The notes under the pieces were generated by a model. It was not told the DNA's origin. It worked only from the letters and a program-made list of their open reading frames with translations, and did no database searches. From Eledone cirrhosa (lineage: Eukaryota): a DNA stretch of 64,000 nt. Position 1 is the stretch's first letter; every line of letters begins with the position of its first letter. The stretch spans positions 317,812,001 through 317,876,000 of the forward strand of contig OZ024741.1 in assembly GCA_964016885.1 (NCBI GenBank). The letters are read 5' to 3'. This document shows positions 4,461 to 63,814 of this stretch, in pieces. Made by a program: the position numbers and the translations under genes.

Positions 4461-6373
4461 ATTCTTTTACTCTTTTACCTGTTTCAGCCATCCGGCTGAG
4501 GCCATGCTGGGGCACCGCCGTTGTTGCTACACATTTTATCTCCAGCCTGTATAGGTTGGCCACTGGTGTAAGAGGGAGTTTGTTGCTGCTGCCCTTAGGT
4601 TTCCCTCGTGTCTTGCTGTGGGCTCATCCGGGATCCTGGATAACAAGGTGTCGAGATGTTTCTTAAAGACATCGACCTCCACGTCATGCAAGTCTCTCAG
4701 ATGCCTCGGTAGCCTATTGAAGAGTTGAGGGCCCTTGAATCCCAGGCTATTGCAATACCTGCTCCTTATTCTAGATCTGGAAGACGTGACCTTTGGCACC
4801 ACACAGTGACGTCCTGTTCGACGGTTGGTCCAGCTCCCAATGCCAAAGTTTGGTGCTAGTGCCTCCAGGATTTTCCACATGTAGATCACTGCGTATCTCT
4901 CCCGTCTTCGCTCCAAGGAGTAGAGGTTCAGTTCCTTCAGCCTCTCCCAGTAGCTTGTCTCCCTCATCTTGGCAATCCTCTTTGTGTAGCTTCGCTGGAT
5001 TGCCTCAAGCTCTGTGGTTAGTTTGACACTATGGGGTGACTACAACTGGCAGCAATAGTCCAGGCGGCTTAGGACAAAAGTCCTCCACAGTGTCAACATG
5101 GTGTCTCGATCTCTTGTCCGGAAAGTCCTCAAGATCCAGCCAGCGAGTCGTCTGCACGTTGTCGCCACTTTCATGATGTGTGAAGAAAAAGATGCATCAT
5201 CGCTCATGTCTATGCCCAGGTCTCGTATCGATTTTGACACGGGGATATCGGTCCCTCCTGGTCCTGTGTAGCTGTGTTCCACTATATTTGTGTTTGCAGG
5301 TTTGTATTGTAGGGCTTGGTATTTGCCAGCATTAAACTGCATGTTGTTTTCTTCCGCCCATCTGTATATGGCATCCAGATCCTGCTGTAAAAGGGCAGCG
5401 TCAGCCGGGTTTTTGATTGCCTGTGCTACCTTAGTGTGATCAGCATAGCTAGTGAGGGATGTTGTTGCATGCACCACAGAGGGCATGTCCGAGAGAGCCA
5501 CCAAAAACAGTAGTGGTCCCAGGATTGTCCCCTGGGGCACCCCACTTGTTATCGGTGTTTCCCTCGAGAGGGCCCCATTTGCTGCAACTGCCTGGCTTCT
5601 GTCCCTTAGGAAGCCATGCAGCCACTCACCTACTTTTCCAGTTATGCCGAGTCCGTGTAGTTTGTGACATATCATTCCGTGGTCGACCTTGTCAAAGGCC
5701 TTCGCAAAGTCAAGATATATCACGTCCACATGTGAGCTGTCTAGTAGTTGTCTCAGTACCCAGTCGTAGTGATGTAGAAGCTGTGTAAGGCAGCTTCTTC
5801 CTGGGCGGAAGCCATGTTGCGTGCTAGTCAGGCGGTCATTTTCTTCGAGGAAAGTGATTAGTTTCTTTCTGACGACTCGCTCCATGACCTTACTGATATG
5901 CGACGTCAGGGAGACTGGCCTATAGTTCTTGGCCTCCGCTCAACTACCTCCTTTATGGATAGGGCATATTGTGCCTTCTTTCAGCTCCCTGGGTAGTACA
6001 CCGCTAGCCAAGGAGTTTCTGAAGAGCATCTTCAGTGGAGTTGCTAAGGCCCGCTTACATATTTTTAAGAGAACTGCTGGGAATCCATCAGGTCCAGCAG
6101 CCGAGTCTGTTCTAATTTCATCAATGGCGTACACCACATCCTCCTCTGTTATGTCAATGTGGTTGATGGTTGCCATTTCTTGATGTGGTGTTGTGGCATC
6201 AAAGAACTCCTCTGGCTTCGTTATTTGCATGTGCCTCAGTGGACATGTGAAGACACTTTTGTACTGTTCGTTCAGTATTTCACATATCTCTTGGGGGTTT
6301 TCGGTTAATGAACCGTCCGTGTGGAAGTGTGGCCCAATCTTGCAGTGTACTGAGGCAGTTTCTTTTGCAAATT
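4461..6373 (-). mobile_element. 5'-truncated CR1-group LINE (RT pseudogene)
   Basis: Minus ORFs: SAAGPDG, QHGFRPGRSCLTQLL, YLDFAKAFDKVDH, SGVPQGTILGPLLF, YADHTK (YADD mutated), RDLGI, SYWERLKELNLYSLERRR; 3' end ...gctgaaacaggtaaaagagtaaaagaat. Confidence 0.92.
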
Positions 6374-7724: not shown

Positions 7725-8280
7725 GATTGGGAATACGGAAGATGATGTGGTTGAGAGGAAGAGCAAGGCCTGGGCGGCGTGTCACAGCTTGAGATCGGTG
7801 TGGAAGTCGGACCTTCGTAGAGACCTGAAAATCCGCCTCTTCATTGCTGTAGTGGAGTCTGTGCTGCTGTATGGGTCTGAGACTTGGACACTGACCAAGA
7901 AACTCACTCAGATGGTGGATGGGTGCTACACGAGAATGCTGAGGATGGCTCTAAACATTAATCAGTATACACTGAGGATGAAAAACTCAGAGCTGTATGG
8001 GAGCATCCCAAAAGTCAGCTCAAAAGTGACACAGAGGAGACTGAGGTTGGCTGGACATGCTCACCGAAATCCAGAGTTGACATTGCACTCAGTGCTCCTT
8101 TGGGAGCCCCTACATGGACACACTAGAAGAGGAAGACCAAAGTTAACATATGTTGATGCCCTAAGGACAGACACTGGTCTGTTGGAGATGCAGGATATGG
8201 CAGCGATAATGAGGGACAGAGACCGCTGGAGAGAACTCGTCCATGGATCTCGGGAATTTTACCCGCCTTAGATAGATAGA
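7725..8280 (+). mobile_element. 3' fragment of an RTE/RTE-X-type LINE ORF2
   Basis: [22 protein letters not shown]...RRLRLAGH...[17 protein letters not shown]; ends in (TAGA)n. Confidence 0.88.
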
Positions 8281-13046: not shown

Positions 13047-13282
13047 ATGATAGGACTGGGTTCCCTATCATTCCACTGCAAAGTGGTCGTGGAGATGCCA
13101 CGGCAAAAAAAGCACCCAGCCCACACTGTAAAGTGGACGTGTAGGCACCACGAAAAAAAAGCACCCAACGCTCACTGATGATGATTATGATGATATGTGT
13201 ATATATATGTATATATATATGTGTGTATATAAAATACAATATGTTGGAAGGGTAACACACTAGAGAGAGAGAGAGATAGTGT

Positions 13283-13491
13283 ACCATCAATAAAACAGGG
13301 AAAACCACCAGTGTTTGGAATCTACAACCTATGGAAGGCTGGGTAGACAGACAATAATTAAAATGCATATACGCACCTCTAATACTATTATATAGTTATA
13401 GAGGTGCGTATATGCATTTTAATTTATATTTTTAATTATTGTGTGTTATAGATTGCATACACTGATGGTTTTTCCCTGTGTTATTGATGGT
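13283..13491. repeat. Fold-back inverted repeat (~210 bp)
   Basis: Inner arms aattaaaatgcatatacgcacctct / agaggtgcgtatatgcattttaatt; outer arms accatcaataa..cagggaaaacca / tggtttttccctg..ttattgatggt. Confidence 0.85.
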
Positions 13492-14149
13492 TCATCATCT
13501 TAGGAGATGGTTCATCATCTTCCTGACTGTAAAGTGTATGCCATTGCATAGAAGTAGCAGGTCCATGTTTTTCAAAAGGATGATGGAAGTTCAAATCCTT
13601 TATATTATATGTAGATATAGATAATTGTGTGTGTGCATCTGAATCGTATGTTTAATTCTCTGTGTATCTGTTTAAGTATTTACGTGAAGACGTGTGTGTA
13701 TGTAACTTACTAAGGCGCAAACACACTCACACACTCATATACAAAATGTGACGTGGTCATCATGTTATAAATTATCCGTTTACTTGTCTATAGTAGATTA
13801 TTTTAGATAAAGTGTTATATTGTTTTAATCCAAATGAAAATAAAAAATTATATGTTGCTACTCTGGGGTCTCATACTATTACCTTGTAAAATTTTATTTG
13901 ATTTGGTCAAGCCATTTTGGAATGCATAAGGATAAGACAGACAGAGAGAGACAAAGAATTTGTTTTTTTTATGGTGTTGCACGACCACTTTACAATGTGG
14001 AATGGGCACTTTTCTTGTGACACCTACATGACCACTTTATAGTGTGGGCTGGGCTCTTTTGTCGTTGCTCATGGAGGGGGTTGGGAAGATGCTTGGGGAA
14101 TTGGGAATGTAAGTATAGAGGTGGGATGATTACAGCAAGGGAGATGGCA

Positions 14150-15660: not shown

Positions 15661-16243
15661 AAAACATGCATAAACGTTTTATTTTCTGCTTCCCTCCTTG
15701 CAAAGTATACTTATCACTTAGCTTTTTCGTAATGTTCTTTGCTTTCCCCTTTTTGCTATTCTTTCCATACCTGTTTCTTGGCCTTAACTGACTTTTTTTT
15801 CTATAACTATATTGTGTTTTAAAATAATTTCTTCTAACTTTTTTTTCAGATTTACTATCCCCAGAATAAGTAAACATTCCAACTGATTAAGTGAACATGG
15901 CGTGCTCCACCAACTTGAAATCAAGTTTAATTCAACTTCATTACTGAAGCTTCTTCTCCTTTCTATGTCAGTCCTTTGAAATACAAGTCAAACTGGATTA
16001 TTAAACAACCAAACAAAAGTCTTTTTGCAGGTGGAATTAGCCAGACAAATTTTTAAAAAAAGATTGCAGCATTTTTGTTTCATTTTTATTTCTTTGTATG
16101 ACTTTGTAATTCAAGTAGTCACAGTTCTTGGCTTCATGTGTTCCTCTCTTTATAAACAAAAAGACCCAAAGAAAAACGGTGATGCCTGTTCATTTTTAAA
16201 TCCGCACCCTTTTTATTTAAGTGCCCCCAATTTTCCATTCAAA

Positions 16244-16479
16244 ATGAATACGCCACACCACCACCATTACAATATGCCTCCCAATCATCATCATCATCAT
16301 CAAATGAATTTTGATATTTGTAACCGCAGCTGCAGTAACAGCAACAACAATAGCTGCAGCAACAACAGCTGTGGTAACAACAGTTGCAGCAACAACAGTT
16401 GCAACACCAACAACAACAGCTGCGGCAACAACAACAGCTGTGGCAACAACAGCAATACTGCTCCCATAAATAACTGTCG

Positions 16480-16513
<34 letters not shown>

Positions 16514-18094
16514 AGTAATAATAATGGTAAAAAGCTTTTGCCCCCCAACGATCACCATCATCATCACCATCACCATCATCCGCATCCACATCAACATCAA
16601 CATCAACATTTTAATCATCATTTGATACCAAAAAATAATATTGGTCGACAGAAAAATTTTCAACCAAACAGCAGAAAATCTCCTACACCGTTACCAATAT
16701 TGACTACAGCAGCAGCAATATTGACTGCAGCAGCAGCAACAACAACAACTACAACAACAACAGCACCTTCGAATGTTTCTAGTAAAACTGCTGTGACATC
16801 ATCAGTAGCTACCCCCCTAGCAACACTTCCTCCGACAACAACTACAGCTCTAGCAAATAAAACTACACTTCCATTCTCTATGTTGACTCCACCACCAGCA
16901 GATAAAACCAAAGACAAACCATATAAGTGTGAGACGTGTCGCAAGGCATTTTCCCGACAATCAAATTTATCTCACCATGAGGAAACTCCAGCGGAGCGTA
17001 AACATTTCCACTGTACCTACTGCTGGAAAGCATTCCCTGTAAGAGCCCGTCTTCGTGACCATGAACGTTCTCACACTGGTGAGAAACCCCATAAATGCCC
17101 TGTCTGTCCTAAAGCATTTAGTCATCAAACTAATTTGAAAAATCATCTAAGAGTCCACTCAGGAGAAAGACCATTTGTATGTGGAATGTGTGGTAAACGC
17201 TTTAGTCATCTAACCAATCTCCGCAATCACGAGAGGACTCATACTGGAGTAAAACCATATATCTGTGGTCACTGCGGAAAGGGTTTTGGTCATATGACTA
17301 ACTTGAAAAATCATCGTCGAACGCACACTGGGGAGAAACCATTTGTTTGCACTCATTGTGGTAAATCTTTCAGTCACCAGACCAACTTGAAAAACCACCA
17401 GAAAACTCATGCATCTTTAGAAAATTATGTAATGCTGGTAGGTCAGTCGAGTGCTTCTAATACTGTAGAAGAACTTGAGAGGCTTTCTGCTGCAGCTGCT
17501 GGTGCCTTGATGCAGGCTTCTAGTACTGATGGTTCTTCTGAACATCAACAGACTGATCCAAATATGAAAGAACAACCACAACAACAACAGCCACAACAAC
17601 CACAACAACAAAAGGAGCAACCAAGAGATTCGCAATTAACGTGGCAGCCAGCCTCTACTCTCTCTTCATCTAACATTGCTTCCAATTCTGTTGCTGCACG
17701 TACAGTTGAAGAATTACAGCAGCTATCATCATTATCTTCAGCAAGCGCCACAGCTGCACGCACTGTTGAAGAATTACAAAAGCTATCTTCACTGTCCAAC
17801 TCCTCAACAATTACACCATTAAGTTCACCACCTGCCTCCAGTGTTCACATGCCTACACTGGAACTAATGAAGCACTCTCAATCTTCTAGGCGTATGACAG
17901 ATACGCCTCATAGGTTTACCCCAACTAACGTATGCCAAACAACAACAGCAGAAGAGGACTTTAACAACAGAATGTCTGCACAAACTTCATCAGCGACGAA
18001 TCGCATGGTTGAAGAACTCCACCGACTATCTGCTCAGTCATCTATACTTAGAATGCAACCATTAAACAAACTTAAGGATTCTCGTCCAAACTAG
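16244..18094 (+). CDS. C2H2 zinc-finger protein (ZNF-A): 1 degenerate + 5 canonical fingers, His/Asn/Thr/Gln low-complexity tracts
   Basis: Uninterrupted ORF 16025-18094 with TGEKP-type linkers. The ORF-track start is a TTG overlapping an acceptor-like tttgcag (16030). Likely ATG is 16244 (aaaATG) or 16136. Confidence 0.92.
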
Positions 18095-24299: not shown

Positions 24300-26063
24300 A
24301 TGGCAAGGAACTTCTTCATGACTCACAAGGAATTCTGTGAAGGTGGCAAGAGCACTTTGATGAACTTTTGAATCAGCCGTCTGTCGTCAATGAAGATTTC
24401 CTCAATCTCATTCCTGAAAAACCTGTGAAAGTAGCTCTCGCAGAACCACCGACACTTGTGGAGGTTGCAGTAGCTATCTTGAAGCTGAACAGTGGACGGT
24501 CTCCAGGTATGGATGGCATACATGCAGAGCTCTTACAATATGGACGCGGCATTACTGATATGATCTCAGCTAGACAGCTCCAGGAGAAGTGCATGGAACA
24601 AGGTTTGGATCTGTATCAGGTTTTTGTCGAGCTGACAAAAGCTTTTGATACTGTTAACAGAAATGCATTGTGAAGGTTCTCCAGAAACTTGGTTGCCCTG
24701 ATAAGTTCTTTGCTTTGGTTAGGTCTTTCCATGACGACATGAAGGCTTGGGTTAATGTCAGAGGTAACATGTTGGAGCCTATCTCAGTAAAACAGGAGGA
24801 TATTCCAGCACTGACCCTGTTTGCCATATACTTTGCAATGGTTTTCTATATTGCATTCAGGACTTGCGAGCATGGTGTTTACATCCAATATCGAACCTCT
24901 GGCAGCATATTTAACATCAGGCGCTTTGCTGCAAAAACAAAAGTATTTACATCAATCATAAGAGACCTCTTGTATGCAGATCATTGCGTTTTACAAGATC
25001 GCAATGATCTGCATACAGCACACACAGCGATATGCAGCACATTTTGAATGCATTTTCTGATGCTTGTATTGCCCTAGGATTGACTGTCAAGAAAACTGTT
25101 GTCATGTACCAACCTGCCCCTGGTAAACAGTACAGTGAGCCAAATATCTATGTGTATGGTAAACGACTTGGAGTGGTTGATCAGTTTGTCTACCTGGGAA
25201 GCACTGTCAATCGATACAGCAACCTTGATAATGAAATTCCACTCAGGAAAGTAAGTGATGCTTTCGGAAAGCTAGAAAGGCGTCTCTGGGGTTGGTGAGA
25301 CATGCAAGAAGACAAAGGTAAAGGTGTACAAGGCATGTGTGCTCTCTTCTCTTCTTTATGCCTGCAAGACCTGGGTCACATATCAACACCACCTTAAACA
25401 ATTGGAACGTCTCCATCAGATGTATCTCAGACGGATCCATGGCGTTCACTGGAGGGACCACATCAGTGATGTCAAGATTTTGGAAAGCTCTATGTGTGAC
25501 AGTATAGAAGCTCGTGTGTTTAAGCAAAGACTCCATTGGAGTGGTCACCTTGTCAGGATGAAGGATTCTAGAATACCAAAACAACTCTTTTATGGAGAGT
25601 TAGTTAAAGGAAAACGACCTCCACATAAACCAAAAAAGAGGTATAAGGATTTGTTGAAAGACGCTAACATCTCTGCTGATACATGAGAAAATGTTGCTGC
25701 TGATCATAATAAATGGAGAAAGACTGTATATGAGGGGAAAGTTGCCTTTGAGGCATCTCGAATCACATACAAGAAAGTAAAGAGGGATGTGAGGAAGGGC
25801 ATCTGTGCAAGACTCTGCCTCAGCAAAGCTGGACTCAAAACTCATCTTCGTAGCCATAAAGTGAGACCAGGGGTTGACTACCAGGCTGCTGTTGGAGATG
25901 CTACTAATCATGCCTGCCAAGCATGTGGTAGAGAGTGTAAATCTGCAGGAAGGCTCAAATGACAGCCGGCTATTCCCAGTGAATGTTTTGGTTGCCAACT
26001 CTGTGCAAGACATTTTAGATCATTGGCTGGGTTAAAAAGCCACATTCGATCACAGCATAGTTA
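24300..26063 (+). mobile_element. RTE-BovB-like LINE pseudogene with C-terminal C2H2 fingers
   Basis: DMISARQLQEKC, ELTKAFDTVNR, LLYADH, FVYLGS, YKACVLSSLLY, RLHWSGHLVRMKDSRIPKQLFYGEL; three CxxC...H fingers at 25800-26060. Confidence 0.9.
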
Positions 26064-26127
26064 ATTGTTACTGTGTGTGTGTATATATATAGATATGTAT
26101 GTGTGTATATATATTTTATTATTATTA

Positions 26128-26232
26128 ATCCCGCCGAGGTTCACTTTGCCTTTCATCCTTACAGGGGCGATAAAATAAAGTACCAGTAATGTACTGGGAT
26201 AATTGCTGTCCTTGTGCCAAAAGTAGAAACAA
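26128..26232 (+). mobile_element. SINE central-domain fragment (gccgaggt..actttgcctttcatcc..gataaaataaagtaccag)
   Basis: Same sequence recurs at ~34950-35115 (-), ~38700-38820 (+), ~45525-45710 (-), ~60808-60893 (-). Confidence 0.75.
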
Positions 26233-26324
26233 TTATTATTGTTATTATTGTCGTTATTATGTTTTTGTTTCGTGCAATGGCCATACTCGATAACGACGGG
26301 GCAGCCATCATTTATATATATATA

Positions 26325-26838: not shown

Positions 26839-26896
26839 GTATCAGCTGTGCTAAAGCGAGAAATTAAATTCTTATTTTATATATATCTAAGAAAAG

Positions 26897-26996
26897 AGTC
26901 AGGACCCCGACGGCTGAGCTTCGGCTGTTTCGACAGCTAGAACCGTTCGTATCTAGCTGTCGAAACGGCCGGAGCTCAGCCGTCGGGGTCCTGACT
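26897..26996. repeat. Near-perfect hairpin built from a hammerhead 3' half
   Basis: 45-bp arms, 10-nt loop; right arm GTC-GAA-ACGGC..GCCGT-C-ggggtcc. Confidence 0.9.
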
Positions 26997-27069
26997 ATTA
27001 CCCACTCTACTACCCTAAATATCGAGTACTCTGGTGCGTTATGGTCCACCTGGTTTCTTACCACACTTT

Positions 27070-27111
<42 letters not shown>

Positions 27112-27425
27112 ATATATGTATATATATATATAACAAAGGAGGTGTGGTAAGGAACCAGATGGACCATAACACACCAGAGTACTCAATACTTAGGGTAGTA
27201 GAGTGTGTAATAGGAAAATTCTAATTTAGTCTAGAAATAGCCGTCGAAACGGCTTCAGCTCTGCCGTTGGGGTTAAACCTTTTCCTATATATATATATAT
27301 ATTGTTATGCTTTGGGAGGGTCATGTTGCCAATAAGAAACACACGCACCAGTTGCTTTCACTCCAATTTATTATAAATTTCCGGTTGGTTGGTTGGTTCT
27401 ATAACCGGACGGTTGTTCATATATT

Positions 27426-27468
27426 GTGAAAGTTCTTTCGTCACACATTATATGACCTCTTCAGTGAC
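27426..27468 (-). ncRNA. Hammerhead ribozyme (left arm copy)
   Basis: Minus: gtca-CTGAAGA-g-gtcata..tgtgac-GAAA-gaacttt. Confidence 0.6.
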
Positions 27469-27577
27469 TGGGATTATTTTCTTTGTTTTTGTGCCTCTCC
27501 TTTGTTCTGTCCTACGCATTCAAGATGGCGTAGGGCAGAACAAAGGAGAGGCACAAAAACAAAGAAAAGAATCCCCA

Positions 27578-27620
27578 GTCACTGAAGAGGTCACAGAATG
27601 TGTGACGAAAGAACTTTGAC
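27578..27620 (+). ncRNA. Type-I hammerhead ribozyme
   Basis: GTCA-CTGAAGA-g-GTCACA-gaatg-TGTGAC-GAA-AG-aa-CT-T-TGAC; stem I GTCA/TGAC. Confidence 0.75.
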
Positions 27621-27800
27621 AATATATTAACCGTCCAGTTATAGAACTAACCAACCGGAAATTTATTATAAATTGGAGTGAAAGCAACTGGTGCGTGTGT
27701 TTCTTATTGGCAACATGACCCTCCCAAAGCATAGCATTATGGGTTTCAACCCACGTTTTCAGAAAAAGAATCTTGCTAAAAAAAAATTTATATATATATA

Positions 27801-27913
27801 TAGGAACGAGTAGGACCCCGACGGCTGAGCTCAAGCCGTTTCGACGGCTAATTAGTCCAGAATTAGCCGTCGAAACGGCTTGAGCTCAGCCGTCGGGGTC
27901 CTACTCGTTCCTA
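27801..27913. repeat. Perfect 53-bp-arm hairpin built from a hammerhead 3' half
   Basis: 27801-27853 is the exact reverse complement of 27861-27913; loop agtccag. Confidence 0.95.
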
Positions 27914-30132
27914 TTACCCACTCTACTACCCTAAGTATTGAGTACTTTGGTGCGTTATGGTCCACCTGGTTCCTTACCACATTTCCTTCGTTATATATAT
28001 ATATATATACGTATATATATAAAAGCAGGGAAAAGCGGACGTAAAATGATGATGATGATATATATATGTGTGTGTATATATATATATATATTAATTAAAA
28101 GACAAATTACATAATGATATATTTATTGCTCCGAGAAGAATGGAAGAGGTAAACTATAAGAGAGAAAAGCTTTCAAAAATATATTTCGGTGTGGATGTTT
28201 AAAAGTTGTCTATGATAGATTGCCCGGCTTTGTGTCTGTAGCTGATCTTCCAAAAAAGTCATTTTTTTCAACTTGAGGTGAAAATAATCACAGATATTAT
28301 TTAACTAAAATGAAAAGAAAAAAGAAGAAAAATTAAGGCAAAAAGAAAATTGCATTTCTAAGTACTTATAATTATATAAATATATATATATGTGTGTGTG
28401 TGTATTTTTAAAGAATTCATTGATGAAAGAAAGTCTGTCTATATATTGAACGAATTACGATGAATTCCGCCAACTCCCTATTCATTGTTTAGTGGACGGA
28501 TACAAAGTGAGGGATCCAAAGCAAGTTTTCCCTCAACGATCACCACTGAATTCCAATGTCATCATCTCATGGAAACATAGACTTCGTTGAAGCTAGAGGT
28601 GGGTGTCCAATTCATTTCTTTCTTTTATAAAACATCAAATGGAACGGTTTTTCTCTCCCTTTTCACGCTGTTATTTCTTTCTTCTTCATTCGTTTGTCTT
28701 TTATATATATATATATATTTTATTTATATTTATATATTTTTCAATGTGGAGAGATTTCTGTTTATAATGAAATGTAGTGTATAAGATGGTGGGGAGAAAG
28801 AATAAGGAGAAATGCAAGTCTAATTATGTATGAATGTTATCGATGCTGCTTACTCGTTCGTTTGACTTCTCTCTCATCTCCTCTTTCCTTACGATTCTCT
28901 TTTATATATGCACAAACATTACCGCCTCTTCCTCCACCTTCCTTTTCTTACTATATATATATTTTTTTCTTTTTTAATCTCCTAATGTGATTGTTTATTT
29001 CTTATTCTTTCCCATTCGGATTAAAACATTGGCTCACGTTTATGGTGCTTTTGCTGAAGATTATGTCTGCAATTATTATTACGATTGATGGCTGTACCTT
29101 TGTAAATATATATATATATATATATATATAGATATTTATTTTAAAATGATAAACCAAGTCATATTTTCAGAAAATATATAAATAAATATATCAATCATTT
29201 TATCTTTATTTTGATTTAGATTGGAAATAATTTCTACGGCTTTTGCTCTTGCAAGCAATGGCCAGCTAGGCTTATTTCATCTGTCTGTGCGTCACATACA
29301 CACACACAAACCATGTCTGGGTTGACCGCATATTTTTTATCTTGATGTGCTTTTCTTGTGGTTAGTTGCAGGGTCATTAATTAATATATATCGATAAGAA
29401 GGGGCAATAAAATCTATCACTCCCCTCTCTATACATCGATAAATTTCTACAAATTTAATACAATTTTATTTCCATAAACCATGTTTGGGATAACTATAAA
29501 TATGTTCAGCCCATCTATGGCTTGAAGTGCTTTCCTTGCATGTGAGTTGCAGGGTCTATCTATAATTAACATATTACGGTAAATAGGGATAAAAAATACA
29601 TATCACTTCCCCCTCTTACACATCGATAAATCTCTGTAGAAAGATTAAATACAATTTCATTCAGTTTCCTTAGAAATTAACCCCCACCCATCCAAGTAAT
29701 TATGTCATAAATTAGCCGTCCTTTAAAATGTCGAAACTCCTAAATAACAAATACAATTTTTATACTTAATGCAGTTGTCAACAAATTTAGTCTTTCTTTT
29801 TAATCATTCGAAATATATGGAACATTCTCTTTATTCCTCTAAAACATTTAAATAAAACATGAAAGGAAATGGAAATTACCAAACAGGTGGTAATATGTGG
29901 ATGCCGTTATGTCTTCGATAGGAGAACCACTACTTTATTGTAACATAATCAGTTGTTCAATACTGAAGTAATACTATTGAAGTAATGTTACTGTGTACTA
30001 TTATAACATACGACACAATGGTCGTGGGTGATGTGTATACATATATACATACATACATACATACATATCCATACATTCATATATACATATACATACACAC
30101 ATACCTACACATACACGCGCACACACACATAC

Positions 30133-32009: not shown

Positions 32010-32524
32010 AATAGATTTAAAAGAGTCAAAGTCAGTGTTGCAGCATATGTACAAACTTTATTTGCATTAGATGTGTGGGCCCCATCACCTTGATTGTACC
32101 CTGAGCTGATCGATATCAAAACAATTGTTTTGATATCGATCAGCTCAGGGTACAATGAAGGTGATGGGGCCCACACATCTAAACTTTTAGATGTGTCTTT
32201 GCACATATAAGCTTGCATATCTGACAAGATGTCGAAAAAGAGTCGGGCCCCATCACCTTCTTTGTACTCTGAGCTGATCGATCACAAAACAATTGTAATA
32301 TGCAAATAAAGTTTGTATATATGCTGCAACACTGACTTTGACTCTTTTAAAACTATCTATCTATATATAGTTATGTAATAAACAACATAAGATAATTATT
32401 TCATTTACCAGTGGTTTCTTGAAGGCAGAACTTACATCTGTCTTCAGTCGTCAGATATAACTTCTGCCTTCAAGAAACCACTGGTAAATGAAATAATTAT
32501 ATTATGTTGTTTATTACATAACTA
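32010..32524. repeat. Nested/tandem fold-back palindromes
   Basis: Inner palindrome 32068-32181 centred on aaacaattgttt; outer arms ~32015-32067 / ~32300-32350; second palindrome ~32368-32524. Confidence 0.9.
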
Positions 32525-33958: not shown

Positions 33959-35334
33959 GTTCTGCTGTCATAGTAAAATGCACACAGTAGAGTGTGGGAA
34001 TAGATTTAAGCAAGATACATCCCCCCCCCCCCCCGTCACATATCAGAGAGGTCAGTGGCTCTGTTTAAGTACTGATTTGGTCTGTGATGACCTTTCTAAC
34101 CTTTGTTAGCAGGGAAAGCAAACTGTACATGGTAATGATGATATGTGTGCGTGTGTGTGTATGTGTGTGTGTAGATATCTGTATAATGTTCTACTCCCCC
34201 TTTTCATCTCATATATACACACACACCTCTTACAACATTGGTCTTTTACCCCAACCACCTCCACCCCCTCAAGAATCCTGTCCTGTGTACCTCCTATGGC
34301 CAACAACTCCCTGAGTTCTTTATAAAGTTGCTCTTTACTGTGAATATTTAGTCACCTGAGGATTGGTAACAAGAAACTCAATGTAGTGACCAGGGCCTCC
34401 AAGAGAAATTTTGCAAGGCTGTACAAGACCCCTTTGGGGCTTGAAGCAGGCAAAGATTTTTCTCAAAATGGATGTTGCATGGTTGCTGTGGGGCCTTCTT
34501 AGCTCTTGGGCACTGGAACAAAGTACTGCCTGGACCCTCCTCTCATATGCCCCGGTAGTGACACACTAAACCTGAGTTTTGAATAAATATAATTCTATTC
34601 TACTATGGTATTCAGTATTTTTCACTGCTTTGCATTTCACTCCAGGGTAAAACCATAATCACACATACATGTATGTGTGTTTGCCTGCATCATCACATCT
34701 ACATTATATTTGTCTATGACATGAAAGCCCTATAGACAACATATCCAAAAATACATAGAACTGAACTTGAGAAATAAAAACACATAAAAAGGCTGATATA
34801 TTGAAACAACTATAAGGAATATTGAATAAATGCAACTTTGAAAAAAATCATCTTCTGCTTACTATATCATCATCATCATCATCGCTGTTTAATCTTCAGC
34901 ACACTCTAGGCACCTTATGTCGCCAGTAGAGTAATCGCCCCTTAATACTTAATTGTTTCTACTTTTGGCACAAGGCCAGCAATTAACCAGTGTATTACTG
35001 GTACTTTATTTTATCGACCCCGTAAGGATGAAAGGCAAAGTTAACCTCGGCGGGATTTGAACTCAAATCATAAAGGGAGGTGTCCGACCCTCTACCGATA
35101 CTGCCAATCCACCACCCCTTAATACATAATGCAGTGTCAAGGGAAGCAATTCATAAAAAAATTCAGTGTGTTAAAGGTTAACGTCTATTTTCCATACTTG
35201 CATGGGTTGGATGGGTTACCCTGTTATCAGGTTAGACAGGACAGTTGACCATGTCTTGCTTGTACACTCTGTTTTTAGTTAGGTTTTCTATAGCTGAATG
35301 CCCTTCCTAATGGCACCTATTTTACAGCTATATG

Positions 35335-39963: not shown

Positions 39964-41732
39964 TTATATACTTGTGTAAGTGTGTATTCATTCCTATAAT
40001 ATCGATGTCTATAGCCAACTGTATGTATGTATATACACCCAGATCTGGCATCTTTTTACTCAATAACTAAGTGTGTATATATCTACGATTATCTATCGAA
40101 GGTGTTGTGTATTATTGTCTGCATATAATGTTATATTAAAAATATAGAATCATTATTTGGATTATTAGTGTGTATAAACATATAACAACAATGAGAATGT
40201 TTTCTTACCATTTCATATCTAATAAATATAGGTACATTTAGATCATATATACAATTGATATTTGTATGTCCGTGTTGGTGTTAAATACGTCTTATGTATA
40301 AATACGTGATACAATTTATTAATATAACAATACCCGTCGATAACTCATATATTATTTACACTCCACACCCTCTATTTAACCTGCTATAACACACAATACT
40401 TCGATTTGTGTTATTATTATTATTCCAGTAGTAGCAGCACTAACAGAAGATATATGTGGGCTTTGAACTGTTAACATGTTATATATCAATTAATTACGTT
40501 TTTGTAGCTTGCTGACCTTTATTTCATTTTAGTTTGGTTATAAATCAAGCCAAGACATTCATGGCAATGCAGCGGGTGATAGCGAGACTAAGACTATGGC
40601 ATAGCCAAGCACGCTTACCGGGAGCATCATCTGATACTTGGGTAAGACGAACCACCGAAAAACGTCAATGTCAGTGGCCCAGCTCCCCCTTTCAACGTCT
40701 CGAATGTTAATAGCAAAAAAAAAAAAAAAAAGAAGAATTTGCTGATAAACCATGGTATTTTAGTAGTTTATTCTTTTTGGCTATGGATGCAGTGACACAC
40801 ACCTTCGCCATGGCAGCAGTTAATTATTTCAGCTAATCTATCCAAAATTATAATTGTCTATGATGATTATACGAAACCGAGAAGTTAGTATATAGAAGAA
40901 TCCAATACACGCATAATTATATTGGTAGGAACGATTCCCTTGGAACTAACTAGACTGGGTTAGTAAGCCTTATGTTAAACTATTTACTAGTAATGGACTA
41001 ACTAGTCAGAATTAGTAGACCTTATATTAAACTGTCTATTTCTAGTAGTGAATTAACTAGACTGGATTAGTAGGGCTTATGTTAAACCACTTTTTGCTAG
41101 TAATGTACTGAATTACTAGGCCTTAGGTTAAACCACTGTTTGCTAGTACCGTATTCGGTATAACCTCCGTTTACTGCACCCAACGCACCGACTTTCTTTC
41201 CCCATAACTTTCTTAATGAAAATCTGCAGCGATATATTTTTAAAAGTGTATATTATGATTATATTGATGAAATTTAAAAGAAAGGTTTATTATTCATAGA
41301 TGTAGAAATGATATTACGCTCCTGTATAAAATCTATGACATTATCTTGATGGATAATTATTTATTAACAAGAAAATTTTCAAGTTTATGCTTATTCTACT
41401 ACAAACAGGAATTGAAAGTATTCAGTATATGAAAACATTAACGAATGAAACTATATACAATAATGAAAGTATCTTTTAAAAAGTAAATTTTTTTTTAATT
41501 TCATCAGCCTAATGGTAATCTATAGCATCGAAAACGTATCTTCGCAATTTTTTTTTATACATGCATTATTAGGAAAGTTATGAAGAAATAAAATCTGAAT
41601 GCCTTAAACTGTAGTTATGTTCCAGAACACAGACCTGCCAACCTCTAAAAACCCCAACGGGAGTACTATGAATAAAAGTGCCCCAAAACGGGAGAAATAA
41701 GGCAAAATAGGGAGATTTTACATAAATCTAGA

Positions 41733-43495
41733 CTAGCTCTACAGTGTGTACCTGAGTATCTATTGCCCTAGGCTACCTCTACAGTGTGTACCTGAGTATC
41801 TATTGCCCTAGGCTACCTCTACAGTGTGTACCTGAGTATTTAGCACCCCACGCTAGCTCTATAATGTGTACCTAGCTATTTAGTGTCCTAGGCTAACTCT
41901 ACAATGTGTACCTGGGTATTTAGTATCCTAGGCTAACTCTACAATGTGAACCTATGTATTTAGTACCCTAGGCAAGCTCTACAGTGTGTACCTAGCTATC
42001 TAGTGTTCTAGGCTAGCCCTACAGTGTGTACCTGGGTATTTAGCACCCTAAGCTAGCTCTACAATGTCTACCTAGGTATTTATTGCCCTAGGTTAGCTCT
42101 ATAATGTGTGCCTGGGTATTTAGTGCCCTAGGCTAGCTCTAAAACGTCTACCTGGGTATCTAGACCCTAAGCTAGCTCTATGTGTACCTAGCTATTTAGT
42201 GTCCTACGTTAGCTCTGCAGTGTGTACTTGGGTATTTAGTGTCCTATGCTAGCTCTGCAGTGTGTACCTGGGTATTTAGTGTCCTACGTTAGCTCTGCAG
42301 TGTGTACCTGGGTATTTAGTGTCCTACGTTAGCTCTGCAGTGTGTACCTGGGTATTTAGTGTCCTACGTTAGCTCTGTAGTGTGTATCTGGGTATTTAGT
42401 GTCCTACGTTAGCTCTGCAGTGTGTACCTGGGTATTTAGTGTCCTACGTTAGCTCTGTAGTGTGTATCTGGGTATTTAGTGTCCTACGTTAGCTCTGTAG
42501 TGTGTATCTGGGTATTTAGTGTCCTAGGCTAGCGCTATAATGTGTACCTGGGTATTTAGTGTCCTAGGTTAGCTCTACAATGTGTACCTGGGTATTTAGT
42601 GTCCTAGGCTAGCGCTATAATGTGTACCTGGGTATTTAGTGTCCTACGTTAGCTCTGCAGTGTGTACCTGGGTATTTAGTGTCCTAGGCTAGCGCTATAA
42701 TGTGTACCTGGGTATTTAGTGTCCTAGGTTAGCTCAACAATGTGTATCTTGGTATCTAACACCCTAAGCTAGCTCTATAATGTGTACCTAGCTATTTAAT
42801 ATCCTACGCTAGCTCTACAGTCTATACCTGGGTATTTAGTGTTCTAGGTTAGCTCTACAATGTGCACCTGGATATTTCGGACCCTAGATTGGCTCTACAA
42901 TGTGCACCTGTATATTTAGAGCCCTAGGTTAGCTCTACAATGTATACCTGGATATTTAGTACCCATAGACTAGCTCTACAATGTGTGCCCAGGTATTTAG
43001 TGCCCTAGGCTAGATTTACTATGTGTACTTGGGTATGTAATGTCCTAGGCTAGCTCTATAATGTGTACCTAGGTTTAGTGCTTTAAGCTAGCTCTACAGT
43101 ATATGCCTAAGTATTTATCACCCTAGGATAGCCCTACATTGTATAACTGGGTATTTGTTCCCTAAGCTCGCTCTACAATGTGTACCTAAGTATTAATGCC
43201 ATAGGGTAGCTCTACAATGTATACCCTAAGCTAACTTTATAATGTGTACCTAGCTATTTAATGTCCTAGACTAGCTCTACAGACTAGCTATTTAGTGCCC
43301 TAGGCTAGCCCTATTATGTGTATCTAGCTATTTAGTGCCCTTGGCTAGCTCTACAATATGTACTTGCGTATTTAGTGCCCTAGGCTATCTCTACAATGTG
43401 TACCTAGGTTTTTATTGCGCCAGGCTAGCTCTACCATGCGTGCCTGGGTATTTAGTGTCCTTGGCTAGCTCTATAATGTGTACCTGGATATTTAG
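41733..43495. repeat. 40-bp minisatellite, ~44 copies
   Basis: Unit agctctacagtgtgtacctgggtatttagtgtcctaggct; homogeneous core 42210-42720; preceded at 41630 by a MITE end homologous to 45431. Confidence 0.96.
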
Positions 43496-43930
43496 CCCCA
43501 AAATGCCCCCCCCCCCCCCCTGCCTCTCTCTCAAATAAAATAACTTTAACTTAAAGGTTTGGTAACCTAGTTTTTGACACTTCTGCTGACCGCAGTAATA
43601 AAATTTCTAAGCCTGCATTTTACACCACACAGTTCACACCCACCCACTCTAGGTCGTAACACCATTTAACCCTCTCCACTATTTTAGATATTACCACAAC
43701 ACTGCAATGCGGCAGAGATATTTAGTGATTTATATATTAGTGGCAGGAAATTATTATATATTTAATTTAATTATAGAAATTTGTATAAAACTGATACACC
43801 TTTCTGAGGTTTGCACCCTAGGTGGTTGCCTAATTCACCTTAATGGTAGCGTCAGCCTTGATGTTGTAGTTTATTTGAAGCATGATATCACGTTCCATTT
43901 CCTTTCTTTTGAAAAAAAAATGTCCTAACC

Positions 43931-44716: not shown

Positions 44717-44719
44717 GCC

Positions 44720-45395
44720 ATGTATTCTTCAAAATCTCTATACAGTACTTCGATGCTGGACCACAGCAACCACCATCTTGATAAGTCCCTGTATAATACT
44801 TCAATGTTAGATGATAACTGTCGAAGAATTGATCATGATATTATTGAGAAAAGCCACTTAGACCACCACTCAAATCTGAAAATGGGTGTTATCCCAAGGA
44901 GTGAGGATTCACATCATGACACCCTAAAGTCCTATAACAGTCACTATAGCAGTAATAGCAACAATAGCCTTAAAATGAAAATAATAACGACAGGCACTTC
45001 TGGGTTTCCATACATTGCTGAGAATGACATGAACAGAAACAGTAACATTGATGATACTGATTCTGAAAATATCACTACCACCAACAACAACACCAAAAGC
45101 AAGCTAGGGTTTATTCCTAACTCTCCTTACATTGGTATCAGCCTTAGTATGAAGAAACCGTACAAATGTGGAACCTGCCGTAAAGGTTTTGCTCAACGCG
45201 GCCATTTGATAAATCATGAGTTAGGTGGCCGGAAGCATTTTTTCTGTACGTTCTGTAACAAAGCCTTCTCGCAGGAGATTATACTGCGCAATCATGTAAG
45301 AACCCACACTGGTGAGCGGCCATTTCACTGTAGCTACTGCACTAGAACTTTTTGCCAGGTCACTGAATGGAGGAACCATGAAAGAACACATACAG
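44720..45395 (+). CDS. C2H2 zinc-finger protein (ZNF-B), coding exon 1
   Basis: ORF with KPYKCGTC.., FFCTFC..HVRTH, TGERPFHC..HERTHT; donor ACAG|gtaagt, phase 1. Confidence 0.9.
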
Positions 45396-45430
45396 GTAAG
45401 TAACAACAGGATTTCTCATCATCATTTAAT

Positions 45431-45808
45431 CAGACCTGGCAACCTCTAAAAACCCAAACGGGGAGTACCATGAAAACGTGTCCCAAAATGGGGAGAAATG
45501 AGGCAAAATGGGAGATTTTACATAATTGTTTCTACTTTTGGCACAAGGCCAGCAATTACCCAGTGCATTACTGGTACTTTATTTTATCGACCCCGTAAGG
45601 ATGAAAGGCAAAGTTAACCTCGGCGGGATTTGAACTCAGACCGTAAAGGGACGTAACTATGCTGGAAAGCATGGCATCCGACTCTCTACCGATACTGCCA
45701 ATCCACCATAATGAAAGCTATACCCATTTTCACAAGAGAAGACATCTCTCACTCACTCAAAAGTGGGTGGGAGATTTCCCTGTCGGATGGGGAGAGTTGA
45801 CATGTCTG
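45431..45808. mobile_element. MITE (hAT-like) carrying a nested SINE, intronic
   Basis: TIR cagacctggcaac / gttgacatgtctg; SINE at ~45525-45710. Confidence 0.7.
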
Positions 45809-47180: not shown

Positions 47181-47741
47181 TATTTTGACAATGTTTCTAC
47201 AGCTGGATGCCATTCCTAATGCCAACTACTTTACAGAGTCTACTGGGAGCATAAATTTAATGGTACCAGCACAAACACTTTACCGAGTGTTCTGGACGCA
47301 TTTTATAATAGGACCAGCACTATTACTTTACCAAATGTAATGGGTCATTTTATCATGGCACCAGCACTAACACTTTACTGAGTGTATTGGGTGCATACTA
47401 TCATGGTACCAACACTAGAGACGTCAAGTCCCCAACATGACCAAGGAATACCTTTTACTTTATGTTGCCTTGCAATAGATTCAAAACTTTGTTTTAAAGT
47501 GTTTATATCTATCTAAAAACACTTCATTATAATTCTATGTAAGAATCCTTGTTATATTCCAAACCCCAGCTTAATAATGAGTAAGCTAGTAATATTACTA
47601 AATCACTCTAAATTCTTGCTTATTTTCAAAATTATTTCAAGCACATTGGTAGTGTATTTTACTAGAAATGTCAAAATGAAAGGATTAATTTTTATCTGTA
47701 TGAAATCTTTTTTCTAACAGTTAAATTTTATTTAATTACAG

Positions 47742-48619
47742 GTGAGAGGCCTTTCAAGTGTGCTCTGTGTCCCAAAGCTTTCTCTCAACAAGGCAATATG
47801 AAAATCCATATGAGAACCCATTCGGGTATAAAACCATACAAGTGTGACACTTGTGGAAAATGTTTCTCTCAAAAGAATAATTTGCGCAACCACATTCGCA
47901 CCCACACAGGTGAGAAGCCACACAGGTGTGCAGTTTGTCAGAAATCCTTCGCTCAGGTGACGAATCTCAACAATCATGAACGGACACACACTTTGGAGGA
48001 GTTACAGAGAGTTTTCATCCAGCAGCCTCCTGCTCATACGCAACCCATGAACCCACATCAGAACATGTCCATGACATCATCAATCCCATCCTCGCCGTCA
48101 TCATCTTCATCATCATCTCCTATTGCAGCAGGCAACAATGCTGTAACAGGGGGTGTCGGCATCTCATTACCATCATCATCGTCTGGTATCTCCTCTTCAG
48201 TGCCAACTACTGTCCGGCCACAGGTGTTGAAAATCCCCACCACATGGATGATGTCCATGGCAAACTCCACACCATCATCTTCCTTGCCCTTGTCATCAGT
48301 TTCGTCAGCCATGTCGCCATCTTTGACGAACGTTTCCTCATATGCCCACCACCCTTCACATACACACAGCCATCCTTACCAAACATCAACAAATACACAT
48401 CTGCCCCCTTTACCTACCATCCCCATGCCTCCTAGCTGGCAAAACGGCTATGCCGCATGTTCCCCGACCATGATCCCAAACCCATCTTCACGTTGGGGCT
48501 CCTCTGTAATGATGGCAAATCAGTCGGCATTCCCAGGAATGTTGCTCCTTGATGATGCTAGAACAGATATTCAAGACTCTCCTGAAAATTTAACCCAAAG
48601 ATGGCAAGTGAACACATAG
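47742..48619 (+). CDS. ZNF-B coding exon 2 (three fingers plus Ser/Pro-rich tail); spliced product 517 aa
   Basis: Acceptor ttacag|GTGAGAGG restores the TGERPFKC linker in frame with ORF 47798-48619. Confidence 0.9.
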
Positions 48620-56453: not shown

Positions 56454-56746
56454 ATCTTATGTAATAAGGTTATGTTTCTGAGGCTATCTAAAGACAAGGG
56501 AACAGACAAATATGATGTCCATTCCACTGAATATTTGTATTGAATAATGAAAACAAAGGGTGAAGACGGAACTGATTAAGCACCAATCTTCACCTTTTGT
56601 TTTCATTGTTCAACACACACAAACACACACACACATATATATATACATATATATATATAAATATATAAATCAAAATGGATGCAGTAAAAACCTGTTAGAT
56701 CATTACTCACCAGAGTACTCGATACTTGGGGTAGTAGAGTGTGGTA

Positions 56747-56859
56747 ATATGAAAGAGTCGGGACCCCGACGGCTGAGCTCTTGCCGTTTCAACAGCTAGT
56801 TCCAAAAGCGTTGTTGAAACGGCAAGAGTTCAGCCATCGGGGTCCCAACTTTTTCATAT
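56747..56859. repeat. Third hairpin of the hammerhead-half family
   Basis: ggaccccgacggctgagctcttgccgtttcaac...gttgaaacggcaagagttcagccatcggggtcc. Confidence 0.85.
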
Positions 56860-57595: not shown

Positions 57596-57967
57596 ATATA
57601 TGTAAACACCACATGATTAAAAGATGGCGGTAGATTTTGAAAATTGAATTAAATTAGTAACATTTGCCGTATTCTTTACTACTGGGGAGCAAGTTGATGT
57701 ATTCAGCTAGCATTCTTATCGCAAAAATAAGAGGTGCGTCTTTGATTCTCACACATGCTGATGTCCAGTTACTTATTCAATTCAATATACATATATATAT
57801 GTGTGTGTGTATGTATATATATGTGTATGTATATATATATGTATGTATATATATATGTATGTATATATATATATATATGTATATATATATGTACGTATGT
57901 GTGTATATATGTATATATATAATCAATGATATTATATAAATGGAAACTATATTTATAAAACCATATT

Positions 57968-58031
57968 TATTTTATTATATATATTTCAAGGGTACCAAAA
58001 AAACTTTGGTACGCTTTCATCAGATAAAATA
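57968..58031 (-). ncRNA. Hammerhead ribozyme (left arm)
   Basis: Reverse complement of 58178-58241. Confidence 0.8.
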
Positions 58032-58177
58032 CAAAGAGTGTTTTATAAATTTTGACATAGCCAAGGAAATCATACTTTATCAGTTGAATTTTCTTGGGTA
58101 GTATATACCACCCAAGAAAATTCAACTGATAAAGTATGATTTCCTTGGCTCTGTCAAAATTTATAAAACACTCTTTG

Positions 58178-58241
58178 TATTTTATCTGATGAAAGCGTAC
58201 CAAAGTTTTTTTGGTACCCTTGAAATATATATAATAAAATA
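58178..58241 (+). ncRNA. Type-I hammerhead ribozyme, intact core
   Basis: TATTTTAT-CTGATGA-aagcGTACCaaag..ttGGTACcctt-GAA-ATATATAT-A-ATAAAATA; 8-bp stem I. Confidence 0.83.
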
Positions 58242-58379
58242 AATATGGTTTTATAAATATAGTTTCCATTTATTTAATGTCATTGAATATTTACTCCAGA
58301 AATCTGGCAAGTGCTCTGAATCAGTTATAAACATTTATATTTGTTGTATTTCCAACAAATTAAATATCCCTTCTGCTTA

Positions 58380-63775: not shown

Positions 63776-63814
<39 letters not shown>

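Follow-up and report, generated by a model that had tools for sequence, protein, structure and literature searches.

A short repeat family, designated family A, occurs in four copies (A1 to A4) in the 64-kb window, i.e., the whole stretch of 64,000 nucleotides of Eledone cirrhosa DNA that was analysed. Three of these copies are symmetric fold-backs with the shared architecture that a preliminary description had assigned to them, and their coordinates, together with those of the neighboring features, are collected in Table 1. None of 200 shuffled sequences folded as stably as these hairpins; the predicted energies, folded as DNA, were −59.5, −74.5 and −50.1 kcal/mol for A1, A2 and A3, respectively (z −15 to −25). 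One arm of each of the three reads GAAACGGC..GCCGT(C) followed by GGGGTCC, and then continues into a common tail and (TA)n, so that the GAAA box, the GCCGT helix and the GUC are all found on one arm, as previously described. The subfamily letters agree between the two arms of a copy (CG/CG, TT/TT and AA/AA in A1, A2 and A3), the outer ends are not identical among the window copies, and the tail lies outside the inverted repeat.

Table 1. Family A and neighboring features in the window (strand: +, −, or a dot where none applies).
Feature	Position	Strand	Description
Copy A1, CG subfamily	26890..27073	+	Short arm 26890-26941, spacer 10 nt, long arm 26952-26996, tail to long end; hairpin 26897-26996, 45-bp arms, 2 mismatches
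Junction hotspot (A1 spacer)	26942..26951	.	Centre 15.5 nt before GAAA; non-folded copies continue upstream from here
A1 GAAA box	26962..26965	+	Likely relic of hammerhead G block; compared with Naiad by eye
A1 CUGA-like block, CTGACTA	26991..26997	+	25 nt after GAAA; core G8 and A9 missing
(TA)n/(TG)n tract	27074..27134	.	Separates tails of A1 and A4
Copy A4	27135..27285	.	Long arm and tail (minus) 27135-27218; short arm (plus) 27215-27285
Neighbor B, another family	27306..27778	.	Head-to-head fold-back, centre 27522
Neighbor B, full minimal type I hammerhead	27582	+	Motif scan
Copy A2, TT subfamily	27800..27992	+	Hairpin 27800-27914, perfect 54-bp arms (0 mismatches), spacer 7 nt, centre 15 nt before GAAA at 27872
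A2 tail	27915..27992	+	On long arm only, between short end and long end
Copy A3, AA subfamily	56669..56859	-	Hairpin 56747-56859, 48-bp arms, 4 mismatches, centre 13 nt before GAAA (56790)
A3 tail end, Naiad-like terminus	56669-56681	-	Sequence comparison

The Penelope-like context proposed earlier was borne out in that all four window copies consist of head-to-head arms with the tail on one arm only, inserted into (TA)n, further runs of which border every copy. An inverted 5' copy, a tail on one end only and a (TA)n bias are the hallmarks described for Penelope (PMC8557442; PMC3846280). The tail of family A measures 80-90 nt, as opposed to the 30-40 bp of a typical Penelope-like tail. Two outer ends are fixed, namely a short end at the arm base and a long end 80-90 nt beyond; in A1, about 7 nt have been lost from the base of the long arm. 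The symmetric axes fall 13.0 (A3), 15.0 (A2) and 15.5 nt (A1) before the GAAA box, and the short arm of A1 stops exactly 13 nt before the GAAA complement.

A4, formerly taken for a partly deleted copy, reads instead as an uneven head-to-head join, in which the two arms meet at a 4-nt overlap (27215-27218). Its short arm goes beyond the usual axis in the 5' direction by about 15 nt and contains 31 nt of parent-type upstream sequence that matches the loose ends of non-folded copies. Alternatively, A4 could be a symmetric fold-back that later lost one arm. For A3 and A4, a loop flip-flop was weighed but abandoned, since both can be read as parent-type sequence. Neighbor B, inserted between A4 and A2 into the (TA)n tract that they also occupy, possesses a tail hairpin (27740-27753) as in Hydra-type elements; no such hairpin was found at the corresponding place in family A. 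An 895-bp ‘giant palindrome’ (27115-28009, 74%) was rejected as a single event, since A4 is unlike A2 and every unit is bordered by (TA)n of its own.

That the palindromes might be fold-back read artefacts was ruled out by three observations: the arms differ from each other in two of the three symmetric copies, raw Illumina reads from a different individual contain the fold-back joints (18 and 3 reads, with two start places each), and a contig from a second species contains one as well. The family A contigs aligned to 147 nt numbered 20,964, 21,607 and 23,147 in three runs of a single sample, and 3,761 of the 20,964 were 99% alike. The depth across the A1-type spacer into the left arm was 3,683, against 72,051 just 3' of the spacer (X1); the same ratio was 63/855 in another species (X5) and about 25/2,545 in raw reads (X21). 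At the spacer, 69% of 10,369 raw reads continue unlike the window stretch. Fold-backs are a minority among the family A copies in the read data, where most copies continue upstream with one arm, although in the window itself three of the four copies are symmetric fold-backs. The minority share, which counts only copies with an A1-like spacer, is probably an underestimate. It is to be noted that hairpins get lost from short-read libraries.

The junctions were found to vary around one site. Alternative letters at the A1 junction occur at 26942 and 26944 (72 and 67 contigs), and other A1-type junctions carry inserts of 5 and 2 letters or are joined as 26951/26951 and 26945/26955, several distinct junctions thus falling within about 5 nt. 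The short end followed by (TA)n was recorded in 98-112 contigs per run at each of two places (X1-X3). The subfamily shares at 26970 in X1 were about 54% C, 44% T and 2% A, and by hand calculation independent draws would give three concordant copies of three kinds in approximately 0.5% of cases. Since both arms of each copy share its own subfamily letters, the fold-backs arose independently, in agreement with the original suggestion.

The preliminary description had further interpreted the GAAA box as part of a hammerhead whose stem II sets the axis of inversion and whose catalytic core is removed by it. GAAA, stem III and NUH do stand in the type I register (GUC in A1-A3, GUU in A4), and CUGANGA, in accordance with that description, adjoins none of the four window copies. 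The half motif had 12 matches in the window versus a mean of 2.1 in 30 shuffles, of which five are in family A and two at one other site; alone, it is weak evidence of a hammerhead. The window is rich in full type I hammerheads (7 core sites versus 0.03 in shuffles). The letters of the half motif in family A also form a GCCGT/ACGGC tetraloop hairpin, and folding prefers this competitor over the hammerhead helix. The one-arm forms folded no better than shuffles (z 0.83 and 0.09), and an alignment of the three copies, being of three sequences only, contained 1 compensated pair of 33. The parent predicted earlier, with ggacccc-CUGANGA before stem II, was sought in the non-folded copies: among the loose-end rows listed (43 of 709), none of the 19 upstream consensus rows, at 30 letters per row, contained CUGANGA, and none of the upstream sequence offered a 9-11-bp partner for the axis helix; the best-supported row has CTGCTGG, a 5/7 match. 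Thus, no intact type I hammerhead parent with stem II was found, and neither the claim that stem II sets the axis nor the claim that inversion removes the core is supported as stated. The clustering of axes expected at a stem II loop was indeed seen at one site, but the axis helix could not be identified as stem II. A type II reading, with the core downstream between the stem I and stem II partners, gave no fit to the tail. In Rfam, no hammerhead family was among the best 150 of 363 matches, nearly all of which were miRNA models on hairpins and (TA)n, below the gathering score.

A resemblance was found to the Naiads of octopus (PMC8557442), in which, by eye, a scrambled-order hammerhead has its CUGA downstream of GAAA. 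By eye and post hoc, the octopus Naiads, of which the two compared are close relatives, match family A at four points in the same order, including the 3' terminus. The match around GAAA is 11/12 (rough chance 1.6e-4, post hoc); that ending in CTGA is 11/15, at 25 versus 23 nt after GAAA (rough chance 1.7e-3); that of the 3' terminus comprises 12 aligned letters with one gap, in A3 (rough chance 5.8e-4); and that with a motif near the Naiad 5' start is 15/18 (rough chance 5e-3, rising to a non-significant 0.4 when the motif may lie anywhere in the element). The central part of the tail is unlike Naiad. In the portion of the Naiad supplement searched (584,131 characters; PMC8557442), the 8-letter GAAA context of family A occurs three times, twice at the 3' ends of octopus Naiads; four other family A motifs and their complements had no match in the same portion. 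A complete CUGANGA was not found downstream of GAAA, the register reading CTGACTA, CTACTCG, CCGACTC and AAACCTT in the window copies, and a descriptor of the scrambled-order hammerhead gave no full match in the window. Between the 6 nt at the register upstream of GAAA and the 6 nt that precede the CUGA-like block, stem I-like pairing involves 5, 4, 5 and 3 of 6 positions; stem III pairing is absent. From these sequence comparisons, family A likely descends from Naiad-type Penelope-like retroelements as a non-coding derivative. Its GAAA box more likely derives from a Naiad-type scrambled hammerhead, the downstream CUGA of which is already disrupted both in folded and in non-folded copies. This ribozyme relic is predicted to have no activity, in which case the fold-back removes no working core. 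Against the Naiad link, cephalopod Naiads were inactivated long ago according to Craig et al. (PMC8557442), yet family A looks young, considering the perfect arms of A2 and the large number of nearly identical contigs.

Taken as a whole, the data are best explained by a high-copy, Naiad-derived mini-element residing in (TA)n, two cDNAs of which join at a hotspot; we place the probability of this reading at about 0.52. Two cut target strands would each prime one cDNA, at two start points on one RNA, such that every fold-back would take two priming events, and both cDNAs would end, and be joined, at a fixed hotspot lying 13-18 nt before the GAAA box, possibly owing to a 3-7-bp local hairpin or to short overlaps. 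Mobilisation would occur in trans by a Penelope-type RT/GIY-YIG enzyme. The descent from Naiad would have proceeded by interior loss, in which stem II lost its 5' strand and the cleavage strand disappeared too, leaving GAAA and a decayed CUGA downstream. What was observed directly are the many copies, the upstream continuation, the two outer ends, the arms of one subfamily, the varied junctions and the uneven A4 join. A purified Penelope-like protein has been reported to cut both strands of the target and extend each of them, beginning at two sites on the RNA between which the tail lies (PMC11167929).

A snap-back without any ribozyme, in which one cDNA pauses at a native template hairpin (3-7 bp around the spacer) and copies itself back until an endonuclease resolves the product at the short end, is unlikely but has several points to its credit. 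Within a copy, the two arms invariably belong to one subfamily, the right arm can be paired by eye with the best upstream consensus around the same loop, the A2 junction overlaps parent-type sequence by 5 nt, and at least 11 uneven opposite-strand joints could be snap-backs onto the tail; moreover, self-priming has been proposed for Penelope from junction palindromes (PMC3846280), and snap-back junctions are known with R2 (PMC11371274). However, in A4 the 5' reach of the short-end arm exceeds that of the long-end arm, for which a single cDNA needs a later deletion; the commonest A1-type junctions have an overlap of 0-1 nt and a loop of 2-4 nt; and a fixed stop at the short end requires an extra cut. 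Snap-back alone, as originally envisaged, explains neither the uneven A4 join nor the fixed short end, both of which are accounted for by two primed cDNAs. It is very improbable that the family is a MITE-like palindromic DNA element, or that it goes back to a small number of palindromic masters, conversion or template switching having maintained the similarity of the arms and the non-folded copies being decayed hairpins. The main upstream row is, by eye, complementary in part to the right arm in three places, like a decayed left arm, and the uneven joint 27855/27948 recurs in 3, 2 and 5 contigs (depth 93-215), so the folded form was copied at least a few times. Nonetheless, the outer ends differ between copies, the tail is outside the inverted repeat, many junction sequences exist, most copies in the read data have one arm, and the conserved terminal inverted repeats expected at both ends of most copies of a MITE were not found.

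Two remaining explanations give the ribozyme a role. The hotspot may correspond to the cut site, 13-14 nt before GAAA, of a Naiad-type scrambled hammerhead that was ancestral, belongs to an unseen subfamily or acts in trans, so that cDNAs run off and join; this is distinctly unlikely, even though the predicted cut of octopus Naiad is, by eye, 13 nt before GAAA. The three axes, the stop of the A1 short arm and the stem I-like pairing agree with such a site, and some non-folded copies start at the spacer directly after (TA)n (27864 in X3, 27860 in X4). On the other hand, the core is broken in all four window copies and in the loose-end rows listed, the strand before the site is without stem III pairing, the scrambled order has no full match in the window, the long arms retain 4-5 nt from upstream, and most copies read through; furthermore, insertion in vitro by another Penelope-like element needed no cleavage (PMC11167929). 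Even more doubtful is a type I hammerhead parent, present or past, the cDNA of which snaps back at stem II such that the inverted arm replaces CUGANGA. In its favor are the register (GAAA, a 5-bp helix and GUC in three copies, GUU in the fourth), the clustered axes, the abundance of full type I hammerheads in the window, the CTGCTGG of the best upstream row, a vote over three runs at that register of C-T-G-x-T-G-A and, by eye, a possible GGGGTC partner 12 nt further upstream. Besides the missing CUGANGA in the 19 upstream rows listed, this look-alike has no stem I beside it, and the next letter is C in the place where G10.1 is required, G10.1 and C11.1 forming a conserved pair in the hammerhead (PMC4209133). 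In addition, stem III is usually 1-2 bp in animal Penelope hammerheads, and the two hammerhead-bearing fold-backs in the window have their axis 60 and 82 nt before the core, outside stem II.

At its far edge, the upstream row is similar to the last part of a B-box-like motif found in the SINE of the window; ARAGORN found no tRNA genes, and pattern scans for family A yielded 0 matches in metagenome contigs, prokaryote genomes and viral contigs. In L1 twin priming, inverted sequence at the 5' junction also arises during reverse transcription, but the inversions are rare or scattered. The R2 snap-back 5' junctions (PMC11371274, PMC11331408) are similar in their origin during reverse transcription, and are likewise rare or scattered, whereas in family A the inversions share one recurrent site and terminate at a second fixed RT start. 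Naiad (Naiad_Obim, Naiad_Ovul; Craig et al. 2021, PMC8557442) shares with family A the (TA)n targets, the inverted 5' copy, the one-end tail, the lack of a canonical hammerhead and a very high copy number, as well as, by eye, the sequence around GAAA, the register of the CTGA downstream of it and the 3' terminus; family A differs in having no ORF seen, an 80-90-nt tail with an unrelated middle, a broken core, a fixed hotspot and young copies. The inverted pLTRs of Adineta vaga Penelope (PMC3846280) similarly have junction palindromes with the tail on one of two arms, for which self-priming was proposed, but they are coding elements with 190-220-bp pLTRs; in the non-coding family A, hundreds of junctions, as estimated from depth, would fall at one site, for which two primings are the better fit. 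In vitro, Poseidon PAc (Frangieh et al. 2024, PMC11167929) resembles family A in the two RT starts bounding the tail, the cutting and extension of both target strands and the AT-rich targets, but has an intact type I hammerhead and an ORF, and its 5' junction formation was not resolved. Type-SGC hammerheads (Eckert et al. 2023, PMC10085705) also place the GAAA block before the CUGA block; with the cleavage block, G8 and A9 missing, family A would be a relic rather than a member. Animal non-LTR retrozymes (bioRxiv 10.64898/2026.07.22.740005) are, like family A, short, non-coding and proposed riders of Penelope-like elements, but they are tandem units with a full type I hammerhead each, in contrast to the dispersed family A, which has none. 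No description of family A was found in the literature located on Penelope twin priming and on non-autonomous Naiad or Penelope; an O. vulgaris repeat library (PMC13282606) may already include it.

Overall, family A is likely a Penelope-type mini-element with a junction hotspot. How inverted 5' ends are made and what role the ribozyme plays in Penelope-like elements are stated as open questions in PMC8557442. A short family with thousands of copies, two outer ends and a hotspot offers a large natural data set for distinguishing snap-back from double priming, as well as a small template for an in vitro test, and may be a fossil of the scrambled Naiad hammerhead. Since the inverted structure itself is already known, only a modest gain is to be expected unless a ribozyme turns out to cut at the hotspot. 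If that reading were true, the ribozymes of Penelope-like elements would acquire a visible job, namely that of defining the 5' junction, and one genome would preserve hundreds of its dated footprints.

The preliminary description had claimed three hairpins of common architecture, and these were indeed present in copies A1, A2 and A3 of family A, a short repeat sited in (TA)n, with arms of 45, 54 and 48 bp and 2, 0 and 4 mismatches, respectively, in the window sequence. Folding z-scores, from 200 shuffles per hairpin, were -16, -25 and -15, i.e., in the range of -15 to -25. In each, one arm reads GAAACGGC..GCCGTC GGGGTCC and continues into a common tail and then (TA)n, and the centre lies 15.5, 15.0 and 13.0 nt upstream of the GAAA box, respectively. 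Over a 35-nt core, mismatches between the arms of one hairpin number 2, 0 and 2, and the window hairpins differ from one another at 3-7 positions. The dinucleotide 3' of GAAACGGC marks three subfamilies, whose shares at position 26970 in run X1 (X1-X3 being three runs of one sample) were about 54% C, 44% T and 2% A, values biased towards the reference sequence used. By hand calculation from these shares, independently drawn arms would yield three concordant copies, each of a different kind, with a chance of about 0.5%; therefore, both arms of each hairpin were derived from a single template. In X5, another species, the AA subfamily, which is rare in X1, accounted for about one-half of the depth. 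The palindromes are not read artefacts, since the arms differ in two copies and fold-back joints were found in raw Illumina reads of another individual (26951/26951 in 18 reads, 26945/26955 in 3), as well as in a contig of another species.

Contigs placed on the A2 arm and tail numbered 20,964, 21,607 and 23,147 in X1-X3 and 557 in a second sample, and the copy number is likely in the thousands to tens of thousands, depth itself being no copy number. The family is common to at least two other species (X5, X6). Between 27875 and 27960, the arm had about one-third of the tail depth in run X4 (17,000 vs 47,000), against near 1.15:1 in X1-X3, either because hairpins were lost from the library or because tail-only copies are numerous. 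The majority of family A copies do not fold back, as measured by placing four runs on the A1 centre: left-arm depth relative to that just 3' of the spacer start was 3,683/72,051 in X1 and 63/855 in X5, and in raw reads about 25/2,545 in X21, where 69% of 10,369 reads continued unlike the A1 stretch. The fold-back share is a lower bound, because only A1-like spacers were counted and hairpins get lost from short-read libraries; in the window, three of the four copies are symmetric fold-backs. Contigs crossing the A1 centre differ in their junction sequences: 72 have an alternative base at 26942 and 67 at 26944, and there are also insertions of 5 and 2 nt and a 3-nt deletion. Fold-backs have therefore been formed repeatedly in this family, within a span of about 5 nt. 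The earlier suggestion of independently made fold-backs thus stands.

The 3' end of the octopus Naiads (Craig et al.; the first octopus sequence there is inferred to be Naiad_Obim) contains, by eye, the cleavage strand, which is followed at 13 nt by GAAA, and CTGATGA lies 23 nt downstream of that GAAA. Family A resembles this end by eye in a 12-letter stretch about GAAA, with 11 identities (rough post hoc chance 1.6e-4), in a 15-letter stretch that has 11 identities and ends in CTGA, 25 nt downstream of GAAA in family A (post hoc 1.7e-3), and at the 3' terminus, where A3 has 12 aligned letters with one gap and A4 is similar (post hoc 5.8e-4); the central part of the tail is not related to it. 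An upstream row agrees in 15 of 18 letters with a motif close to the 5' start of the Naiad (post hoc chance 5e-3, or 0.4 if any element position is allowed). The 8-letter GAAA context of family A occurs three times in the whole Craig et al. supplement, twice at octopus Naiad ends; the remaining family A motifs tried against that supplement gave no match. Cephalopod Naiads are described as long inactive in PMC8557442. Overall, these sequence likenesses lean towards a link between family A and Naiad elements. If that link is right, the GAAA box would be a real hammerhead relic, as had been proposed, and the CUGANGA counterpart, previously sought on the wrong side, would lie downstream, just after GGGGTC, where it is broken in all four window copies; a scrambled-order hammerhead descriptor gave no full match in the 64-kb window.

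The preliminary description had instead placed the axis at stem II of a type I hammerhead, with CUGANGA upstream in a non-folded parent. No CUGANGA was found in 19 upstream rows of 30 letters each (8 from the A2 and 11 from the A1 placement), which come from 43 of the 709 loose-end rows listed, with agreement down to 0.37, so that a rare parent could hide. One upstream kind was represented by 1,959 and 1,296 raw reads (agreement 0.78 and 0.77), with 27 X5 contigs beginning alike, and a second by 81-87 contigs per run in the A2 placement, and also in X6; some loose-end rows of that placement have (TA)n directly 5' of the spacer. By eye, the best upstream row can base-pair with the arm to form an imperfect hairpin that has the same loop. 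This row contains CTGCTGG, 5/7 of CUGANGA, at which register a vote over three runs gives C-T-G-x-T-G-A, with a possible GGGGTC partner 12 nt further upstream; however, stem I must adjoin the core, and the look-alike is followed by C, whereas G would be needed there for the conserved G10.1-C11.1 pair (PMC4209133). A type I parent of the proposed kind was thus not encountered in these rows, and its existence is improbable. The window has 7 type I core sites, compared with 0.03 in shuffled sequence, and in the two fold-backs with full type I hammerheads (27582 and 58186) the axis lies not at stem II but 60 and 82 nt before the core.

All four window copies consist of two head-to-head arms, of which one bears the tail, a layout published for Penelope-like elements (PMC8557442 and PMC3846280). 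The short end, the outer end at the arm base, is fixed: it occurs at two places, and at either one about 100 contigs per run stop and give way to (TA)n. With a purified Penelope-like protein, both strands of the target were cleaved and extended, and synthesis began at two positions on the RNA that flank the tail (PMC11167929). In A4, 31 nt of the short-end arm are upstream sequence of the parent type (28/31 alike by eye to the second upstream kind), and this arm joins, with a 4-nt overlap, a long-end arm stopping at the arm base. This favours two cDNAs, because one self-folding cDNA would need a later deletion of one arm, and it makes snap-back at a small native hairpin unlikely. At least 11 further uneven opposite-strand joints in the A2 placement, with sides at 27852-27870 and 27907-27952 on a reference stretch started at 27850, fit two primings or snap-back alike. 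The joint 27855/27948 (3, 2 and 5 contigs) has a depth of 93-215, well above single-copy depth, and is a folded chimera that may have been copied in turn. The junction hotspot, the spacer point where the arms meet, is within 2 nt of the register where the Naiad ribozyme would cut, and also coincides with the point at which a 5' Naiad fragment would have been joined to a 3' one; that it is an RNA end made by the ribozyme is nonetheless doubtful, even more so than snap-back, as the core is broken in family A and many copies run through the hotspot. We favour, with a probability of roughly 0.5 for the whole account, two cDNAs primed on one RNA, both of which would be joined at the hotspot.

The window is (TA)n-rich animal DNA with zinc-finger exons and LINE fragments; its features are collected below.

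Features of the window, with strand where assigned
Feature	Position	Strand	Remark
Family A, A1	26890-27073	+
Family A, A2	27800-27992	+
Family A, A3	56669-56859	-
Family A, A4	27135-27285
Family B fold-back	27306-27778		92%, head to head; short and long ends; centre 27522
Family B type I hammerhead	27582	+	full, minimal
Family B hammerhead	27464	-	mutated copy
Family B hairpin	27740-27753		5 bp, just past short end
Palindrome	57916-58293		97%, no spacer
Its type I hammerheads	58186; 58023	+; -	minimal, one per arm
Type I hammerhead motif	31795	-
Type I hammerhead motif	30960	-	long stem II region, ~58 nt
Type I hammerhead motif	9440	-	resembles 58186 family
Type I hammerhead motif	34356	+
Palindromes	32067-32182, 32368-32524		adjacent, AT-flanked; probably further Penelope-type stumps
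Palindromes	13274-13500, 63023-63781		probably further Penelope-type stumps
Common SINE-like repeat	34946-35114, 45519-45708, 60807-60898, 26127-26236		B-box-like motif
C2H2 zinc-finger open frames	15980-18094, 44717-45403, 47666-48619		likely host exons
LINE reverse-transcriptase fragments	1049-1672, 4536-5939, about 7800-8271, 24658-26019		several broken by very long (TA)n tracts
Tandem array	41727-43502		~1.8 kb; offset steps near 40 and 120 bp

Junction palindromes at inverted 5' ends have already been published, with self-priming proposed for them in 2013 (PMC3846280). No published description of family A was found, the O. vulgaris repeat library lying outside this comparison. The novelty lies in a recurrent junction hotspot within a very abundant non-coding family, which likely also holds a relic of the scrambled ribozyme.
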